DNA of 23,315 bases from Actinomycetota bacterium (GTDB taxonomy: Bacteria; Actinomycetota; Actinomycetes; Streptosporangiales; Streptosporangiaceae), in contig DAHUZQ010000235.1 of NCBI GenBank assembly GCA_027306495.1, forward strand, positions 1-23,315, read 5' to 3'. A model generated the notes under the pieces. That model did no database searches, had not been told where the DNA came from, and saw only the letters and a list, made by a program, of their open reading frames with translations. This document shows, in pieces, positions 4,464-22,620 of this stretch (position 1 is the stretch's first letter; every line of letters begins with the position of its first letter). Made by a program: the position numbers and the translations under genes.

Positions 4464-5669
4464 CTAGCCTGCGGCGCGATCCACGACGCGCCCTTTCCAG
4501 GCACCACCCCGCCCGCTGTGATGGCGGCGGGCGGAATCGACTGTCATGGCCGCATACAGGACGGCGACCAGCGGCAGCGTGGCCGCACGCAGCGGTGAGA
4601 GCCGGTACATCCGCAACACGGGAACATAGGTCGCGGTCATGAGCAGAGCGGCGGCCCAGCCAGCGGCAGCCGTCACTGCCGCGGCCACTGTCCCGTTCGC
4701 CAGCCAGGCGGCCAGGCCACCCACCGCGGCCACCGGCGGCACCAGGTAGATCCATGCCAGCCCGACCACCACCAGAGCCAGCAGCATCGGTGAATACCGG
4801 AGCTGGGTGTAGGCACTGCGGGCGATCATCTCCCACAGCGACCGCAGGGTCGGATACGGCCGCCGGCTCTCAAGATCCACCGAGAACCCGAGCCAGCACG
4901 GCGACCGCGCCGGAGAACGCTTGAGAAGCCGCGCGAGAGCGACATCATCGATCCGCGCACCGGAGATCATCTGCAGCCCGCCCGCAGCGGCCAGCGCGGA
5001 CCGGCGCACCAGCATGCAGCCGCCCGCCGCCGCGGCCGTGCGGCTGCGGGCGCGGCTCGCGCGCCGGAATGGATAGAGCTGGCCGAAAAAGTACACAAAG
5101 GCCGGCACGATCAACCGCTCCCAGCCGCTGTCGGCCCGCAGCAACACCATCTGCGACACCAGATCGAACGGGCCGCCCTCGGCCGCCCGTACCAGCGACC
5201 GCAGGGCGTCCGGCGACCAGCTGATGTCGGCGTCGGTGAACAGAAGGTAGTCGCTGCCGCCGGCCGCCGTGACGCCCTGCGCCATCGCCCAGACCTTGCC
5301 CGCCCAGCCGGCAGGAGGAGGACAACCTGCGATGACACGCAGCCGGGAGCCAGGGCCGGCCAGCGACGAAGCCACTTGTGCCGTCCCATCGGTGCTGGCG
5401 TCGTCGACCAGCACGACCCGCAGCCTGCCCGGATAGTCCTGCCTCAGCAGCGTCGGCAAGGTCTGCGGCAAGATCGCGGCCTCGTCGCGGGCAGGCACGA
5501 CCACGCTCACGCACGGCCAGGTCCCCGGTCCCGGACCTGGCCGTCGCGCGTCATCGCCTGCTGGGCAATCTGGCAGGCGATGATCCGCCCGCCAGTAGCC
5601 GCCGTGCCCCAGCAGCAGGTATCCCCAGGCGAGGGCGGCGAGCACCGTGACCGCAACGGCGACGATCAC
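4464..5669 (-). CDS. family-2 glycosyltransferase with N- and C-terminal TM segments; HpnB-like (hopanoid-associated glycosyltransferase) by architecture and context
   Basis: GT-A motifs are present: VSVVVPARDEA, LVDDASTDGT and a DAD-like TDADI. It has an N-terminal TM helix and 3-4 C-terminal TM helices. The GTG start has GAGG 6 nt upstream, only 8 bp after the flotillin stop. Membership of the HpnB family cannot be proven without an HMM search. Confidence 0.7.
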   Translation of the reverse strand: MIVAVAVTVLAALAWGYLLLGHGGYWRADHRLPDCPAGDDARRPGPGPGTWPCVSVVVPARDEAAILPQTLPTLLRQDYPGRLRVVLVDDASTDGTAQVASSLAGPGSRLRVIAGCPPPAGWAGKVWAMAQGVTAAGGSDYLLFTDADISWSPDALRSLVRAAEGGPFDLVSQMVLLRADSGWERLIVPAFVYFFGQLYPFRRASRARSRTAAAAGGCMLVRRSALAAAGGLQMISGARIDDVALARLLKRSPARSPCWLGFSVDLESRRPYPTLRSLWEMIARSAYTQLRYSPMLLALVVVGLAWIYLVPPVAAVGGLAAWLANGTVAAAVTAAAGWAAALLMTATYVPVLRMYRLSPLRAATLPLVAVLYAAMTVDSARRHHSGRGGAWKGRVVDRAAG

Positions 5670-5677
5670 GTGCTACC

Positions 5678-6856
5678 TCAGCCGGCCCCCTGGCCATCCG
5701 CCTGCCCATCGGGCTGACCGTCCGCCCCGCCGGCTGCGGGGAGCCCGGCGGACTGGCTGCCGGGCGCGCGGTCCAGTTCGCCGTTCACGCTCTTCCTCAC
5801 CGTGCTGAGGATCGACAAGCCCTGGCCAACGAGACTCGCGGCGATCTCACTCAGCCCATCGGCGCCGTTCAGCACGCTGACGTTGGCTCCTCCGAGGCCA
5901 GCGGCGGCTTCCTTGACGATCTGGGGAAGCTGGTTGATGAGCATCTGGTCGAGCGCGATCCGGTTGTTGGAGGCAGCCGCCTGCGCCTGGATCGTCACCC
6001 GCTCCGCCTCGGCTCTGGCCAGCACACGCACGCGTTCGGCTTCGGCTTCGGCCGGCTTGACCACCTCGGCCACGAGTTGGCGCTCGCGCAGTTCCGCCTG
6101 CTGACGGGCGAGTTCGGCCTGTGCCGCGATGACCTTGAGTTGCGCCTGCGCCTGGGAGAGCGGCCCGGCCTGGGCCGCCTCGGCCTGGGCCTTGTCGATC
6201 TGGGCCTTGTACTCGGCCTGCACGACCGCGGTCTGCCGGGCGTACTCGGCCTGCTTGCGCTGCGATTCCTGCTCGGCCTCGGCCGCCGCCTGGTTGGCCT
6301 GAGCCTGGGCGATCTGAGCCTGGCGGCGGATCGCCGCGTTGTGTGGCGCGGCCATCGAGTCGATATAGCCCGCGTTCATATCGTCGATCGACTGGATTTG
6401 CAGGGAGTCCACGGTCAGGCCGATCTTGACCATCTCCACCTTGGATCCGTCGAGGACCTCCGTCGCCAGTTTCTGGCGTTCGGTGACGATTTCCTCGACC
6501 GTCATGGATCCCACGATCGACCGCAGGTGGCCCGCGAAGATCCGCCCGGTCAGAGTTGACATCTGATCCTGATCGGACAGGAAACGCTGGCCCGCATTGA
6601 CGATGCTTTCCTCGTCGTTGCCAACCTTGAAAGCGATGACCGCTCGCACGTTGAGTGCAATACCCTGCCGGGTCACACAGGTCTCGGCGACTTCCGCCTC
6701 CTGCATTGACAAGGTCAGGTAACGAGCCTTGCGGAAGAAGGGGGCGACGAATGCGCCATGGCCGACCACCACCCGGAACGGCGCTCCACTGTGCCAGCGC
6801 CTGCCGCCGGCGACCAGCATGGCCTCGTCAGGCGCTGGGACACGGTATCCGAACAT
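5678..6856 (-). CDS. flotillin (SPFH/band-7 domain plus Ala/Glu/Gln-rich coiled-coil flotillin domain), FloT homologue lacking an N-terminal membrane hairpin
   Basis: GHLRSIVGSMTVEEI is identical to the FloT core motif. The N-terminal PDEAMLVAGG aligns to FloT GPDEALIVTG. A long EA/AQ-rich coiled-coil segment follows. A strong RBS (GGAACAGGAGCAGG) precedes the ATG. An in-frame upstream stop prevents any N-terminal extension. Confidence 0.85.
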   Translation of the reverse strand: MFGYRVPAPDEAMLVAGGRRWHSGAPFRVVVGHGAFVAPFFRKARYLTLSMQEAEVAETCVTRQGIALNVRAVIAFKVGNDEESIVNAGQRFLSDQDQMSTLTGRIFAGHLRSIVGSMTVEEIVTERQKLATEVLDGSKVEMVKIGLTVDSLQIQSIDDMNAGYIDSMAAPHNAAIRRQAQIAQAQANQAAAEAEQESQRKQAEYARQTAVVQAEYKAQIDKAQAEAAQAGPLSQAQAQLKVIAAQAELARQQAELRERQLVAEVVKPAEAEAERVRVLARAEAERVTIQAQAAASNNRIALDQMLINQLPQIVKEAAAGLGGANVSVLNGADGLSEIAASLVGQGLSILSTVRKSVNGELDRAPGSQSAGLPAAGGADGQPDGQADGQGAG

Positions 6857-6901
6857 GCTGCCTGCTCCTGTTCCTATGTCAGCGAGCCCGCCCGGGCGGA
6901 C

Positions 6902-7144
6902 TCAATAGTCCTCGTCCTGGAATGGGCGGAGTGGGTCATTCCATTCGCTGACATCAACCGTCCGTGTCCCCCGATCATTGATGACCAGGACAGAAGTACC
7001 CCGTTTCAGCGGCTGGGCCGACCAGGCAATAAGCGCTTCAGAGCCACCGCGGTAGGAGATCAGCACCTCTCCGGGACCGGACTGCCCCCGTGTCGCGACG
7101 ATGATCCGGCCGATACAGCCGACCACGGAACTGTCCTGAGCCAC
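6902..7144 (-). CDS. short NfeD-like OB-fold (beta-barrel) protein, the usual operon partner of flotillin
   Basis: 80 aa with a Gly/Val pattern (GEVLISYRGG...GTSVLVIN..GTRTVDV) typical of the NfeD C-terminal domain. GTG start with GAGGAG 8 nt upstream. An in-frame stop 4 codons upstream bounds the N-terminus. It sits directly 5' of the flotillin gene. Confidence 0.5.
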   Translation of the reverse strand: MAQDSSVVGCIGRIIVATRGQSGPGEVLISYRGGSEALIAWSAQPLKRGTSVLVINDRGTRTVDVSEWNDPLRPFQDEDY

Positions 7145-7280
7145 CGCCGGCGCTCCTCACACATTCCCATGAATGCGAATCACCACCCTATCTGTTCACA
7201 GCGTCCACGGCGGTTTCCGGGGGGTGACGATGTGGCCGGGATGCTGCTCGCGCCACAGCGAACTCGCAGGCAGCCCAGAC

Positions 7281-7320
7281 ATGCTGATGGCGCCCCGGTC
7301 AACCGGGGCGCCATCAGCAT
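7281..7320. repeat. perfect 18-bp inverted repeat with a 4-nt spacer (ATGCTGATGGCGCCCCGG-TCAA-CCGGGGCGCCATCAGCAT); hairpin or palindromic operator
   Basis: Exact reverse-complement arms read directly from the sequence. It lies in the 313-bp gap between the ribokinase stop (7458) and the NfeD start (7144). There is no adjacent U-tract on either strand. Confidence 0.9.
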
Positions 7321-7457
7321 GGGGCCGGTGTGTGGTCGCCTCCTCGGCGAGTGGCACAACGCGGCTCCAGCCGGACGGTATTCCGCGAAGGCAGTGATAT
7401 TGCGGCCCGGGGGACACATCACACCAGCACTGATCGATAACAGTGCCGGTAGCTGAG

Positions 7458-8486
7458 CTATTCCGGGCGGCCGCACGGTCCCGGCCACACCAGGCCGGTG
7501 GCCGCGAGCACTGCTTCGGCGTCAGGCATGGCAGCCTGGGCACCACGGACGGTGACCGCCGTCGCCGCCACCGCGCACGCGGCGCGGACGGCCCGTTCCG
7601 GCTCAATCCCAGCCCCCACGGCCACAGCGAGCGCCCCGCAGAATGCGTCGCCTGCCCCGACCGTGTCAACCGCCCTCACCGGGAACGCTGGCACCACCAC
7701 CGTCGGCACCGGGGCGGTGGGACGACCGCCGCGGGCCCGGGCTGCCTTCGGGGACTGAGCCGTGCCCGGCGCGGACTGAGCCGTGCCCGGCGCGGATGCC
7801 AGGACCGCGCCCATAGCACCGAGCGTGATCACCACATGCCCGGGCCCCCACCCGGCCAGCGTCGCCGCGGCCTGTTCGGCCTGGCTCAGCCCGTGTACGC
7901 CCGTCCCAAGCAAGGACGCCGCTTCGCGGGCGTTGACCACCAGCCACCGCGGCCGCGCGGCCAGCAGGTCCCGCCCGCCCGCCGGGACGGGCGCGAGGTT
8001 GAGCACGGCCGGGATTTCGTGCCGGTGCGCCGCCACGAGTGCCGCGGCGAGTGCGGCCACCCCGATCTCGGCGCTGAGCAGGATCACCTCGCACGGGTGA
8101 ACCAGTGCCGCGTTCACGTCCTGTTCGCCAAGCAGCGAATTGGCGCCTGGCGCCACCGTGATCGCGTTCTCCCCCGCTTCATCCACGCTGATCAGGGCGA
8201 GCCCGGTGACCGCGCCCTCAGCCACCCGCAGCCCACTGGTGTCCACCCCCCGCGATCGCAGGCCGCTGACCAGCGTGGCCGCGAACTCATCGGCACCCAC
8301 GCACCCGTGCAGGCGCACCCGCGCGCCCAGTCGGGCAGCCGCGACGGCCTGGTTCGCACCCTTGCCGCCGGGGCCGATCACGGCTCCCGAGCCCAGGACC
8401 GTCTCTCCGGGGCTGGGCAACCGCGGCACCCTCACGCAGATGTCGGTATTCAGGCTGCCGATCACGGTGATGGTGGGACCCGGCAT
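7458..8486 (-). CDS. rbsK: ribokinase (PfkB family carbohydrate kinase) with a low-complexity insertion
   Basis: N-terminal ITVIGSLNTD...PxxGET matches the ribokinase pattern. The GGKGANQAVAAARLG signature-1 and DTVGAGDAF signature-2 are present. ATG start with GAGGAGG 7 nt upstream. Confidence 0.75.
   Translation of the reverse strand: MPGPTITVIGSLNTDICVRVPRLPSPGETVLGSGAVIGPGGKGANQAVAAARLGARVRLHGCVGADEFAATLVSGLRSRGVDTSGLRVAEGAVTGLALISVDEAGENAITVAPGANSLLGEQDVNAALVHPCEVILLSAEIGVAALAAALVAAHRHEIPAVLNLAPVPAGGRDLLAARPRWLVVNAREAASLLGTGVHGLSQAEQAAATLAGWGPGHVVITLGAMGAVLASAPGTAQSAPGTAQSPKAARARGGRPTAPVPTVVVPAFPVRAVDTVGAGDAFCGALAVAVGAGIEPERAVRAACAVAATAVTVRGAQAAMPDAEAVLAATGLVWPGPCGRPE
7752..7793. repeat. 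perfect 21-bp tandem duplication (ggactgagccgtgcccggcgc x2) inside the ribokinase CDS, encoding SAPGTAQ-SAPGTAQ
   Basis: Two identical adjacent 21-bp units read from the sequence. It is in frame, and lies within an insertion of about 25 aa relative to canonical ribokinases, just before the DTVGAGD motif. Confidence 0.9.
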
Positions 8487-8601: not shown

Positions 8602-10632
8602 ATGATCGTTGCGATGGTTAGCCACACATCCGTCCGGACCCTGATCCTGGGTGTAACGGCCTCGGGGCGGCTAGTGGAGCATGACCGCACCGCCCCCGAA
8701 GTCATCGCCGCCCCGGACGGGCCGCTGCTTGGTGCGCAGTTCAGCGATGTGATCGCCGAACCGGCGCTGCCGGGGTCTGCGCTCGCGGGTGTGCTGGAGG
8801 CGATCTCAGCCGGACGGGAGGCTACCGCCGTCCTCGCCGTACGGACCCGCCGCGGCCACCCGGTCGAGGCCGTCGTGTCCGTGCAGCCCATGCGCAGCAG
8901 TGAATCCAAGGTCGCGGCGCTGATCATGCTACGGGTCCCACCACCGAGCGAAGAGCAGTTCATGGACCCGGCGGTCATCCGTTACGCACTGCTCAGCGAC
9001 ACCTTCCGGCATATCGGGACCACTTTGGACCTCGACCAGATGGCCCGGGGGCTGGTCAACATCCTGGTCCCGCATTTCTGCAACGCCGCCGGCCTGCTGG
9101 TGCTGGAAAGCCTCGCCGCGGCCGACGAGCCCACGCCGCGGGCAGAGGGCGACCATCTGCTGCGCCGGCTCGCGTTCGCCGGCGACCCCGGCGACGCGGC
9201 GTGGGAGGCGATGTTCCCGCTCGGCGAAACCGTGCGGCACGCACCCGGCAGCCCGCAGGCACTCTGCCTGCAAACAGGTAAGCCCATGCGGGAGTCGGAT
9301 GTCGGCATCGGCCACTCCTTCACACGCTCCCCGATGCACGGGCCGGCGACGCATCTGCTCGATCGTGCGTCCATGCTGGTGCTTCCCCTGATATCCGGCG
9401 ACAGCGTGCTGGGCGAGATCGTGTGCCTGCGCCGCTCGGGCCTGCGCGCCTTCGACTCCTATGACACAGAGATCGGCATGGAGTTCGCGAGCCGGGCCGC
9501 CATCTTCACCGAGAACGCGCGGCGCTACAACCGGGAACGGACCACGGCGATCATGTTGCAGCGCAGCCTGCTGCCGACCGGCCTGACGGTTCCCTCCTCC
9601 GTCCAGGTTGCCCACCGCTATCTGCCCGGCAGCCATCTCGTCGAGGTCGGCGGCGATTGGTATGAGTCGCTCACGCTGCCCGGGGCGCGGGCGGCCCTGG
9701 TGGTCGGGGATGTGGCAGGCCACGGGGTGGGTGCCGCCGTGACCATGGGCCGGCTGCGGACCGCCATCCAGACCCTCGCCATGCTGGAACTCCCGCCGTC
9801 GGAGTCGCTGCAGCAGCTCGACGAACTCATGCATGTGATCGGCGTCCGCGAACCGCACTTCGCCACCTGCGTCTACGCGACCTACGACGCGGTGAACGGC
9901 ACCTGCGAGATCGCGTCGGCGGGCCACCTCCCGCCCCTGCTCGTCAGCCCCGATGGGGCCGCCCGCTACCTTGACCTGCCCGCGGCACCACCGCTGGGCG
10001 TGGGTGAAGGCCCCATCCGCAGCACGGCCCTCACCGTAGAGGACGGGAGCCTGCTGATCCTCTACACCGACGGCCTGGTGGAGAGCCGCACCGCCGACAT
10101 CGATGTGGGCCTGGAACGGCTGCGGGCGGCGTTCGCCGCCGGTGTGGCGGACCTGACGGTAGAGGAACTCTGCACGGCCGCCCTGGCCAGTGCCTATGCC
10201 GAGGAGCAGCGTGACGATATCGCCGTGCTGATCGCGCGGTTGCGCCGGATCGACCCTGGGCAGCACGTCTCCTGGGATCTGCCGGGGGAGGTCACAACCG
10301 CCGGCCGGGCGCGGGCGCTGGTCGGCGAGCCGCTGGCGCGGTGGGACCTGGCGGCCATGCTGCCGCTCACCCAGTTGCTCGTATCCGAACTGGTGACCAA
10401 CGCGATCCGCTACACCAGCGGCCCGGTGATGGTGCGTCTCATCAACGAGGGCTCGCTGGTGTGCGAGGTGTACGACAACTCACCGGCATTGCCCAGGCTC
10501 CGGCATGCGGCCCGCGACGATGAATGCGGCCGCGGGCTGGAGATCGTCAGCCAGATGTCGGACCGGTGGGGCGCGCGGCGCACTCCTTCGGGCAAAGTCG
10601 TCTGGTGCGAGCAGAAGCTCCCCAATCGCTGA
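8602..10632 (+). CDS. multidomain signalling protein: N-terminal sensor region + GAF + PP2C/SpoIIE phosphatase + C-terminal RsbW/SpoIIAB-like HATPase_c kinase domain
   Basis: GAF-like region spans about aa 130-300. SpoIIE/PP2C motifs are present: ERTTAIMLQRSLLP, GGDWYE, GDVAGHGVGAA and LLILYTDGLVE. The C-terminal part carries ELVTNAIRY...GRGLEIV, the N-box/G-box of anti-sigma-factor-type kinases. ATG at 8602; an alternative start is the ATG at 8614. Confidence 0.8.
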   Translation: MIVAMVSHTSVRTLILGVTASGRLVEHDRTAPEVIAAPDGPLLGAQFSDVIAEPALPGSALAGVLEAISAGREATAVLAVRTRRGHPVEAVVSVQPMRSSESKVAALIMLRVPPPSEEQFMDPAVIRYALLSDTFRHIGTTLDLDQMARGLVNILVPHFCNAAGLLVLESLAAADEPTPRAEGDHLLRRLAFAGDPGDAAWEAMFPLGETVRHAPGSPQALCLQTGKPMRESDVGIGHSFTRSPMHGPATHLLDRASMLVLPLISGDSVLGEIVCLRRSGLRAFDSYDTEIGMEFASRAAIFTENARRYNRERTTAIMLQRSLLPTGLTVPSSVQVAHRYLPGSHLVEVGGDWYESLTLPGARAALVVGDVAGHGVGAAVTMGRLRTAIQTLAMLELPPSESLQQLDELMHVIGVREPHFATCVYATYDAVNGTCEIASAGHLPPLLVSPDGAARYLDLPAAPPLGVGEGPIRSTALTVEDGSLLILYTDGLVESRTADIDVGLERLRAAFAAGVADLTVEELCTAALASAYAEEQRDDIAVLIARLRRIDPGQHVSWDLPGEVTTAGRARALVGEPLARWDLAAMLPLTQLLVSELVTNAIRYTSGPVMVRLINEGSLVCEVYDNSPALPRLRHAARDDECGRGLEIVSQMSDRWGARRTPSGKVVWCEQKLPNR

Positions 10633-21333: not shown

Positions 21334-22620
21334 ATGGCCAGCGAATACCCCATCCGCCCGATCAGCCCCGGCGAGTACCCGGCCTTTGCGGCCGTTCACT
21401 CTCATGCTTTCAATTCGGCCCCGCACGGCCAGGACCGCCGGGAAAGAGCCCTGGCACTGATGGAGTTCGAGCGCAGCCTGGCGGCGTTCGACGGGACCAC
21501 CCTGGTCGGCAAGGCGGGGGCCTACAGCCTCCGGCTGTGCGTGCCCGGCGCGGTGACACCGGTGGCGGGAGTGACCATGGTCGGGGTGCTGCCCTCCCAT
21601 CGGCGCCGGGGCATCCTGTCGGCGCTCATGCGGCGGCAACTGCACGACATCCACGACCGGGGCGAGGCCGTGGCCGTCCTGTGGGCCTCCGAGGCCGGCA
21701 TCTACGAACGGTACGGGTACGGCCCGGCTTCATGGCATGCCGCGTTCAGCGTCAACCGCCATGAGGTGCGCCTGCGGGCCCACGTTCCCGGTGACGCGGG
21801 GCTGCGGCTGCGGATCGCCGAACCCGGCGCGTCCCGGGATGACCTGGCGAGGGTGTACGACACCGTCCTGGACGGCCAACCGGGCCTGTTCAAGCGTGAC
21901 GAAGCCTGGTGGAACAGGGTGCTGGCCGAGCGTGATCCAGCGCCAACTTCCACCCCACTGCGCTGCGTCATAGCCGAGGATGATGACGGCCCACGCGGCT
22001 ATGCGCTGTTCACAGCACAGGAGGCCTGGGATGAGGACTCGTTCCTGCCCGCCGCGAAGATGGCTGTGCAGGAGGTCATGACCGCCGATCCCAGCGCCAC
22101 GGCGGCGATCTGGCGAGATCTGCTCAGCCGCGACCTCATCGAGCAGGTGCGTGCCGACCTGCGGCCCGTTGACGACCCGCTGATCCACCTGCTGGCTGAC
22201 CCGCGCCGGCTTCGCGCCCGGGTCAGCGACGGGCTGTGGGCGCGGGTCGTCGACGTAGGCGCGGCGGCGGGCCAGCGCCACTATGCCTGCCCGGTCGAGG
22301 TAGTGCTCGACGTCGTCGACGACGTGTGCCCGTGGAACTCCGGGCGCTGGCGGCTGGCCGCCGGCCCGGACGGCTCCGGCCGGGCATCCGCGCCGGGCCT
22401 GGCCCCGCCCGGCGGCTACCGGGCCGTCTGCGAGCGAACGGCCGCCCCGGCGGATCTCACCCTGCCCGCCCACGCGCTCGGAGCGGTTTACCTGGGCGGC
22501 ACCAGGCTCGGGCCGCTGCGTCAGGCGGGGATCGTCATCGAGCACCGGCCGGGCGCGGTAGCGGCCCTCTCCGCCGCCATGGCGTGGGATCCCGCACCCT
22601 GGTGCCCGGTCATCTTCTGA
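21334..22620 (+). CDS. eis: Eis-family GNAT N-acetyltransferase (enhanced intracellular survival protein-like)
   Basis: Clear similarity to mycobacterial Eis: VGVLPSHRRRGILSALMRRQLHDIHDRG, VLWASEAGIYERYGYGP and the C-terminal LGAVYLGGTRLGPL. ATG with AGGAAGG 7 nt upstream. About 428 aa, matching the Eis tripartite architecture. Confidence 0.85.
   Translation: MASEYPIRPISPGEYPAFAAVHSHAFNSAPHGQDRRERALALMEFERSLAAFDGTTLVGKAGAYSLRLCVPGAVTPVAGVTMVGVLPSHRRRGILSALMRRQLHDIHDRGEAVAVLWASEAGIYERYGYGPASWHAAFSVNRHEVRLRAHVPGDAGLRLRIAEPGASRDDLARVYDTVLDGQPGLFKRDEAWWNRVLAERDPAPTSTPLRCVIAEDDDGPRGYALFTAQEAWDEDSFLPAAKMAVQEVMTADPSATAAIWRDLLSRDLIEQVRADLRPVDDPLIHLLADPRRLRARVSDGLWARVVDVGAAAGQRHYACPVEVVLDVVDDVCPWNSGRWRLAAGPDGSGRASAPGLAPPGGYRAVCERTAAPADLTLPAHALGAVYLGGTRLGPLRQAGIVIEHRPGAVAALSAAMAWDPAPWCPVIF

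Follow-up and report, generated by a model that had tools for sequence, protein, structure and literature searches.

What does a long, perfect palindrome do between a sugar kinase gene and a flotillin operon? The question is raised by a stretch of 23,315 nucleotides (nt) from an Actinomycetota bacterium of the family Streptosporangiaceae (GCA_027306495.1, contig DAHUZQ010000235.1), the whole of which is here called the window. The original prediction, made from the window alone, had offered three answers: a terminator without a U-tract, an RNA stability or processing element, and an operator for a dimeric transcription factor. A comparison of the window with related loci suggests a more specific answer, namely, that the palindrome is very probably the 3'-end-forming stem-loop of an independently transcribed small RNA gene on the minus strand. 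The support for this RNA module (promoter, RNA, and hairpin) is comparative throughout.

Palindrome in the window

The palindrome is exact, as had been predicted, and its extent was corrected from 18-nt arms at 7281-7320 to 20-nt arms at 7280-7299 and 7302-7321, which are 100% complementary and separated by a 2-nt gap. Folding of the minus-strand RNA, a check proposed with the original prediction, gave 19 consecutive base pairs closed by a UUGA loop and -42.1 kcal/mol for the hairpin folded alone, and the surrounding 121-nt region had a z score of -6.1 against dinucleotide shuffles. Perfect inverted repeats elsewhere in the 23-kb window reach at most 12 nt, those in block shuffles (n = 20) reached at most 13 nt, and at 71% G+C only 3.5e-5 perfect repeats of 20 nt or more are expected by chance, in agreement with the claim that the palindrome stands far above chance. 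It lies 136 nt from the kinase stop codon (7458) and 135 nt from the GTG start codon (7144) of a gene for an 80-amino-acid (80-aa) protein, close to the ~140 and ~137 bp first estimated. The kinase, 80-aa, flotillin, and glycosyltransferase genes around it are all on the minus strand, the common strand that had been described. The short mirrored open reading frames (ORFs) on the two strands are indeed by-products of the palindrome, and overlapping ORFs of 102 aa and 74 aa had no match in Pfam.

The palindromic form alone could suggest a dispersed repeat resembling repetitive extragenic palindromic (REP) sequences or miniature inverted-repeat transposable elements (MITEs). The 18-nt arm had 65 matches in a collection of 185,579 reference genomes, of which the source genome is not a member, and each match was a single arm in an unrelated taxon; no second arm was found near any of the 65, so the whole palindrome never occurred. 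Among the viral contigs of IMG/VR there was one match, also unrelated, and the window contains no further copy of the palindrome. The hundreds of intergenic copies that the original prediction had named as the mark of a generic repeat were not seen in these searches, and we consider a REP-like or MITE-like repeat extremely improbable.

In close relatives, the stem varies in a way that keeps its pairing. The flotillin of the window is identical to those of L001 (a 49-kb contig of a metagenome-assembled genome [MAG], GCA_027313635.1) and L002 (a Logan contig), the DNA of which is ~99.5% identical to the window. In the L001 stem, one arm has a C-to-U change, which gives a G.U pair in the minus-strand RNA, and the loop differs from that of the window. 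In the L069-L071 clade, in which the flotillin is 97% identical, both arms are changed from G-C to A-U and the loop has a third sequence, so that the window, L001, and the L069 clade have three different loop sequences. Because the stem changes in L001 and in the L069 clade keep the pairing, minus-strand pairing appears to be preserved, with the loop being free to vary.

Predicted small RNA element next to the palindrome

The palindrome stem begins 2 nt past a helix, P1, that closes a conserved element of ~105 nt. Window positions 7327 to 7428 are 93 to 94% identical to the corresponding region of loci L072, L073, and L075, compared with ~85% for the coding flanks, and the flotillins of these three loci are ~82 to 84% identical to that of the window. 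Metagenomes were scanned with an exact 21-mer of the RNA core, which was found in at least 120 contigs; the locus counts given below are among the matches listed.

P1 has 10 bp, in which 5' GCUGGUGUG... pairs with 3' ...CACACCGGC, and it encloses a near-invariant interior with UCCCCCGGGCC, a CGCGG/CCGCG stem, and a UCGCC-GAGGA-GGCGA hairpin. Both sides of P1 have changed (CG to UA and others) in 7 of the 10 pairs, and 97% of the cells in the P1 alignment are paired; none of 500 shuffles matched these values, which collapse in slid registers. About 80 cells are G.U or U.G pairs that would be A.C mismatches if read from the opposite strand. These wobbles work on one strand only, indicating that the functional strand is the minus strand of the window. 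RNAalifold proposed four small interior helices that never vary in the sample; since they are invariant and the sample is phylogenetically shallow, these helices are uninformative. Indels of 1 nt and of other lengths not divisible by three distinguish the homologues, which excludes a protein-coding element.

A covariance model built from 66 sequences gave 116 bits at 7323 to 7434 on the minus strand, its sole significant match in the window, and 484 kb of unrelated loci gave no match. In searches with this model and with nhmmer, neither the window nor any other locus examined had more than one copy. The models of Rfam 15 (4,227 models) at gathering thresholds matched only a tRNA in the window, and at E values of up to 10 there were only chance matches on the bare hairpin. 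The small RNA gene is unannotated and outside every Rfam family. No description of it was found in the literature by keyword or exact sequence, which is no proof of novelty. A phage origin of the RNA was also considered and rejected, as the core 21-mer is absent from viral contigs.

Some individual loci deserve mention. Similar, non-identical copies of the RNA are present in L096 and L147 (RKMJ01000004.1, 2.0 Mb, and RKMJ01000015.1, 0.89 Mb), which belong to one assembly, suggesting that more than one copy per genome is possible. In L163 (1506-1629), a 13-nt insertion, CCTTCGGCCGGCG, follows CCGUCCGG and would add a UUCG-capped hairpin; the site after CCGUCCGG thus appears to tolerate an extra stem. 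In the divergent L199 (2231-2345), GCCGUCGCGGACUACC replaces the usual GCCUUCGCGGAAUACC. This change may be a compensatory swap of U-A to G-C within CCUUCGCGGAAU and may support a UUC-GCG-GAA hairpin that differs from the RNAalifold model.

Putative promoter of the small RNA

The element is preceded by a putative promoter of its own. In the window, a -35 element, GGAAT (7464-7460), and a -10 element, GTT (7441-7439), are separated by an 18-nt spacer, and P1 starts 10 nt further. The GGAAT overlaps the kinase stop codon TAG (7460-7458), the last kinase codons thus being shared with the promoter. The motif GGAA(T/C)-N18-GTT was identified in 99 of 102 non-redundant loci, with a spacer of exactly N18 in 95, and lies 9 to 12 nt from P1 across loci; it occurs in 2.4% of random 85-nt windows. 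The consensus of SigR promoters is GGAATN18GTT (PMC2375139), and positions 7464 to 7439 of the window hold this SigR/SigH-type motif of extracytoplasmic function (ECF) sigma factors. A consensus scan of positions 6500 to 8000 for sigma-70 promoters and U-tract terminators identified no site. SigE-type promoters overlap those of SigR and SigH in consensus, and the small RNA promoter is predicted to be read by an ECF sigma factor of the SigR, SigH, or SigE type.

The interval that separates the RNA promoter from the 80-aa gene contains tandem repeats of CCCCGGCCGGCTATTCCG in L073 (4530-4600) and also in L074. This sequence holds the -35 GGAAT on its other strand, and the -35 region is therefore duplicated in these two loci.

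Conservation of the module

When oriented as the minus strand of the window, the listed loci have the promoter, the RNA, and the hairpin in the same order. Of 101 non-redundant loci, 98% have a strong stem-loop within a few nt of the RNA 3' end. Relative to the end of P1, the start of the strongest one is at a median of -1 nt (interquartile range, -3 to +2), and its median free energy is -35.5 kcal/mol (at most -20 kcal/mol in 98% and at most -25 kcal/mol in 93% of the loci); the level of -25 kcal/mol is reached by 44% of control regions, which were taken from upstream of the promoter. Among these 101 loci there are 98 distinct hairpin sequences. With so many different hairpins at one position, it is the structure that is conserved and not the sequence.

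This drift bears directly on the operator that the original prediction had proposed. A perfect dyad that precedes the putative -10 box of the 80-aa/flotillin operon by ~90 nt could be the binding site of a dimeric transcription factor controlling that operon. However, the palindrome is missing in L072, L073, and L075, the hairpins of other loci are unrelated to it, and the substitutions in its variants keep RNA pairing, including a G.U pair, and not sequence. In addition, 40 bp of pure G+C-rich stem would be atypical of an operator, and the site has no second copy in the window. We consider an operator highly improbable and do not retain this option.

As an independent check, eight flotillin loci were picked by protein similarity alone, and the RNA was present in seven of them. 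Three such loci lack the exact 21-mer and have the promoter, the RNA (105 to 121 bits), and a strong downstream hairpin, showing that the search pattern did not create the module. Neither a flotillin nor a kinase homologue is found near about half of the loci with the 21-mer, where the hairpin still follows the RNA. In 20 of these loci that were examined, the gene past the hairpin is mostly convergent, and the neighbours include an MscS-like channel, YaaH, amidase, NicO, DAHP synthase, and a MerR regulator, which fits a stand-alone RNA gene and not a leader. The element also has several characteristics of stand-alone small RNAs: a promoter of its own, a covarying structure on one strand, no coding capacity, and no fixed downstream gene.

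The surroundings of the module have some peculiarities of their own. In L090, L092, L143, and L157, an ORF ends 5 to 11 nt before the RNA element and spans the promoter. Its product has a conserved N-terminal domain of ~75 aa (…LPRLGEVFFDVRGSSRSMRLSWYADTG…), followed by several hundred low-complexity residues rich in Q, Y, G, and D and an arginine-rich C terminus; it has no match in Pfam, and its named homologues are only from "Streptosporangiaceae bacterium" MAGs. Tandem repeats of 13 to 15 nt are found just past the hairpin in L107, L167, and L170, for example, three copies of CCCGGACGGCCAG. In L094, a 35-nt exact inverted repeat has one arm directly upstream of the -35 element and the other 175 nt after the RNA, near the contig end, and may be a fold-back assembly artefact.

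Inversion of the module in the clade of the window

The small RNA gene has different orientations in different clades. Among the 42 listed non-redundant loci with the 80-aa gene, the RNA is divergent from this gene in 39 and co-directional with it in 3, and all 3 belong to the clade of the window. Where the kinase gene is present in the divergent loci, the RNA is convergent with it. In the window clade, in contrast, the kinase gene, RNA, hairpin, 80-aa gene, and flotillin gene follow one another in one direction, and the six contigs of this clade all have the one orientation. The independently chosen flotillin loci show the same orientation pattern. The kinase and flotillin genes have a constant mutual orientation, and the inverted segment must therefore be the module, with a minimum length of 185 bp. 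The hairpin is inverted together with the RNA in the window clade, and in either orientation it stays on the 3' side of the RNA. The arrangement looks like the result of a single evolutionary inversion.

A perfect 11-nt inverted repeat, TGTGGCCGGGA / TCCCGGCCACA (7231-7241 and 7479-7489), brackets the module, and its right arm encodes ...WPG of the kinase, exactly where the homology of the L073 kinase stops. This repeat is at best a possible mediator of the inversion: of 90 non-inverted loci, 20 also have flanking repeats of at least 10 nt (10 to 12 nt), and it is missing in the sister sub-clade L069. An inverton was rejected, as the orientation is fixed in each clade, the 11-nt repeat is unexceptional, and the gene calls around the module include no recombinase.

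The orientation data also bear on whether the hairpin is a simple kinase terminator or a generic insulator that is unrelated to the adjoining conserved element. In the window the hairpin follows the kinase gene and shares its strand, as such a terminator would. In the 39 divergent loci, however, it is 3' of the RNA and on the strand opposite the kinase, in about half of the listed loci it is kept after the RNA with neither kinase nor flotillin nearby, and it was inverted as one unit with the RNA. We therefore regard this explanation as improbable.

Another possibility is that the palindrome is a scar of the inversion, i.e., a functionless quasi-palindrome perfected by template switching. It is near one end of the inverted segment and is unusually perfect, the other hairpins of the family being mismatched and containing wobbles. 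On the other hand, its 5' arm, GATGGCGCCCCGG, is like the arm GATGGCGCCCCCG of the non-inverted L083 as judged by eye, with no formal alignment, and this likeness would make the palindrome a perfected derivative of an ancestral 3' hairpin and not a junction product. The position of the family hairpins, 2 nt after P1, is also kept. A scar is thus very improbable.

Proposed function of the hairpin

The model that we favour starts from the promoter described above. An ECF sigma factor (SigR, SigH, or SigE type) would start transcription a few nt upstream of 7428, and the polymerase would make an RNA of ~105 nt, the ends of which pair in P1, and then the 42-nt G+C-rich hairpin. The hairpin would fix the 3' end of a transcript of ~150 to 160 nt, most likely by factor-assisted intrinsic termination and at minimum by blocking 3' exonucleases. 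Because the module is inverted in the lineage of the window, the same hairpin would there also end the kinase mRNA and would thereby insulate the 80-aa/flotillin operon, which has its own -10 box downstream. Both the expression of the small RNA and the stop of transcription at the hairpin are predictions from sequence. The terminator without a U-tract in the original prediction is thus the favoured one of its options, although the small RNA gene in the 136-nt gap between the kinase gene and the hairpin had been missed.

Several points weigh against this model. Of the characteristics of an intrinsic terminator, the window hairpin has the G+C-rich stem and the 3' location; the 7- to 9-nt U-tract is absent from its tail (UCUGGGCUGC). 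In the family, only 28% of the loci have four or more T residues in the 10-nt tail. Mycobacterial RNA polymerase requires a U-tract for intrinsic termination in vitro, where NusG helps termination at weak sites (PMC3993855). Hairpins are weak or displaced in L073/L074, L086, and L089, and the G+C-rich control regions also fold well (median, -23 kcal/mol). Compensation in the L069 clade is no proof of selection, since hairpin-templated template switching can give rise to perfect palindromes as well as to paired changes in the arms. Finally, the 21-mer sample favours close relatives, and the invariance of the 21-mer itself is by construction.

The tail without U residues, the small number of U-rich family members, and the U-tract needed by the mycobacterial enzyme make a protective 3' structure the main rival. 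According to this explanation, transcription would end further downstream or by Rho, and the role of the hairpin would be limited to shielding the small RNA and the kinase mRNA from 3' exonucleases or to marking a site of processing. The place of the hairpin right after the RNA suits this function equally. However, there is a modest T enrichment in the hairpin tails (median, 3 of 10 nt versus a background of 17%), and the hairpin is mostly located between convergent genes, a classic site for terminators. Protection without termination therefore seems unlikely to us. The stability or processing element of the original prediction is a variant of the 3' stem-loop that we favour.

Genes around the palindrome

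The features of the locus are collected in Table 1. The gene upstream of the palindrome had been called a ribokinase gene. Its product belongs to the PfkB family and is ribokinase-like, and the top NCBIfam model is ribokinase, but the score of 253 bits is below the curated cut-off of 299.65. The flotillin label was supported by Pfam and NCBIfam. The label NfeD for the 80-aa protein, in contrast, was a guess from position: the protein had no match in Pfam or NCBIfam. When 42 upstream regions were aligned, a TAnnnT box and GAGGAG were conserved before the 80-aa gene in all arrangements, and in the window both are downstream of the hairpin; TAGGGT is therefore listed as a separate putative promoter of the 80-aa/flotillin operon. 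The named homologues of the flotillin and of the neighbouring proteins are labelled only as "Streptosporangiaceae bacterium" MAGs.

Table 1. Features of the palindrome locus in the window
Feature	Position	Strand	Basis
Family-2 glycosyltransferase gene	4464-5669	-	Gene calls
SPFH/flotillin gene, 392 aa	5678-6856	-	Pfam/NCBIfam
80-aa gene, always before the flotillin gene	6902-7144	-	Synteny
GAGGAG, putative Shine-Dalgarno sequence of the 80-aa gene	7158-7153	-	Alignment of 42 regions
TAGGGT, -10-like TAnnnT box ~40 nt upstream of the GTG of the 80-aa gene	7185-7190	-	Alignment of 42 regions
Palindrome, putative terminator-type stem-loop	7280-7321	-	Inverted-repeat search and RNA fold
Minimum inverted module (promoter, RNA, and hairpin)	7280-7464		Synteny comparison
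Conserved core of the predicted small RNA, ~105 nt	7324-7428	-	Conservation, P1 covariation, and covariance model
Putative ECF-sigma-type promoter	7439-7464	-	GGAAT-N18-GTT motif
PfkB-family sugar kinase gene, ribokinase-like, upstream and co-directional	7458-8486	-	Pfam/NCBIfam

The PfkB gene contains a 21-bp (7-codon) tandem repeat, TCCGCGCCGGGCACGGCTCAG, at 7749 to 7792, the copy number of which is strain variable. In L001 the tandem-repeat region is 42 bp longer, and the product is 356 aa, compared with 342 aa for the ORF of the window. A gene for a GAF-SpoIIE-HATPase phosphatase is located at 8602 to 10632 and adjoins a hopanoid-type cluster at ~10.6 to 16.8 kb (from the gene calls of L001), with amine-oxidase-like, polyprenyl synthase, squalene-hopene cyclase, LytB-like, and radical-SAM/DUF3463 genes. 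In L072 (6348-7739), a gene for an IS4-family transposase directly follows the flotillin gene, in place of the family-2 glycosyltransferase gene. Elsewhere in the window, a tRNA-Gly gene (anticodon TCC) is located at 40 to 113 on the plus strand, and the longest other inverted repeat is an imperfect one at 22167 to 22255 (40 nt, 70% complementary, with a 9-nt spacer).

Significance and comparison with known systems

The palindrome alone is an ordinary actinomycete-style terminator hairpin; what is added is an unannotated RNA gene and the inversion of a cassette. The RNA gene, the putative ECF-type promoter of which is remarkably well conserved, is a candidate stress-regulon small RNA of a little-studied actinobacterial lineage, and soil and peat metagenomes contain it in abundance (the at least 120 contigs mentioned above). 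The ~100 natural long hairpins at one position, with and without a U-tract, form a test set for actinobacterial termination, and the inversion of a whole promoter-RNA-terminator cassette between fixed neighbours is a natural experiment.

A bolder proposal, which we consider doubtful, is that the RNA represents a new class of structured RNA in uncultured soil actinomycetes, driven by a stress promoter, and that the inversion couples flotillin to it by leaky read-through. If so, an interior of ~80 nt would be near-invariant across a large group labelled "Streptosporangiaceae bacterium" at NCBI, behind a SigR/SigH-type promoter, and an RNA conserved to this degree would be more likely to bind a protein or ligand than to act as a simple antisense regulator. 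The inversion of ~190 to 240 bp would put a stress unit head to tail before the 80-aa/flotillin operon, and a leaky hairpin without a U-tract could couple membrane-raft (flotillin) expression to the stress response.

The hairpin shares with intrinsic terminators, including U-poor actinobacterial ones, a long G+C-rich 3' stem-loop, often between convergent genes, and a structure that is conserved while the sequence drifts. It differs from them in the missing U-tract of the window, the weak T enrichment of the family, and a perfect 19-bp stem that is far longer than canonical ones; unaided termination by U-poor hairpins is disputed (PMC3993855). The predicted gene is short and stands alone, with a promoter of the ECF type and a terminator hairpin of its own, and in this it resembles the sigma-E-dependent small RNAs of Escherichia coli (PMC6767563), which are unrelated in phylum, sequence, and structure. 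For base-pairing small RNAs in general, the near-invariant interior of ~80 nt would be unusual. The promoter motifs and their spacing are exactly those of the SigR/SigH regulon (PMC2375139) in 95 of the 102 listed loci.

Like 6C RNA and other actinobacterial small RNAs in Rfam, the element is small, conserved, and G+C rich and has a C-rich stretch (UCCCCC), but it matched none of the 4,227 Rfam models, even at E values of up to 10. For the C-rich stretches of 6C RNA, pairing with G-rich ribosome-binding sites has been proposed. By analogy, one might guess that UCCCCC has the same role here; the near-invariant interior would suit the binding of a protein or ligand equally well. Finally, the module resembles invertons such as fimS in being a promoter segment of ~185 to 240 bp that is found in opposite orientations between fixed genes. 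It is unlike them in that its orientation is fixed in each clade, no recombinase is present in the gene calls, and the flanking repeat is unexceptional.

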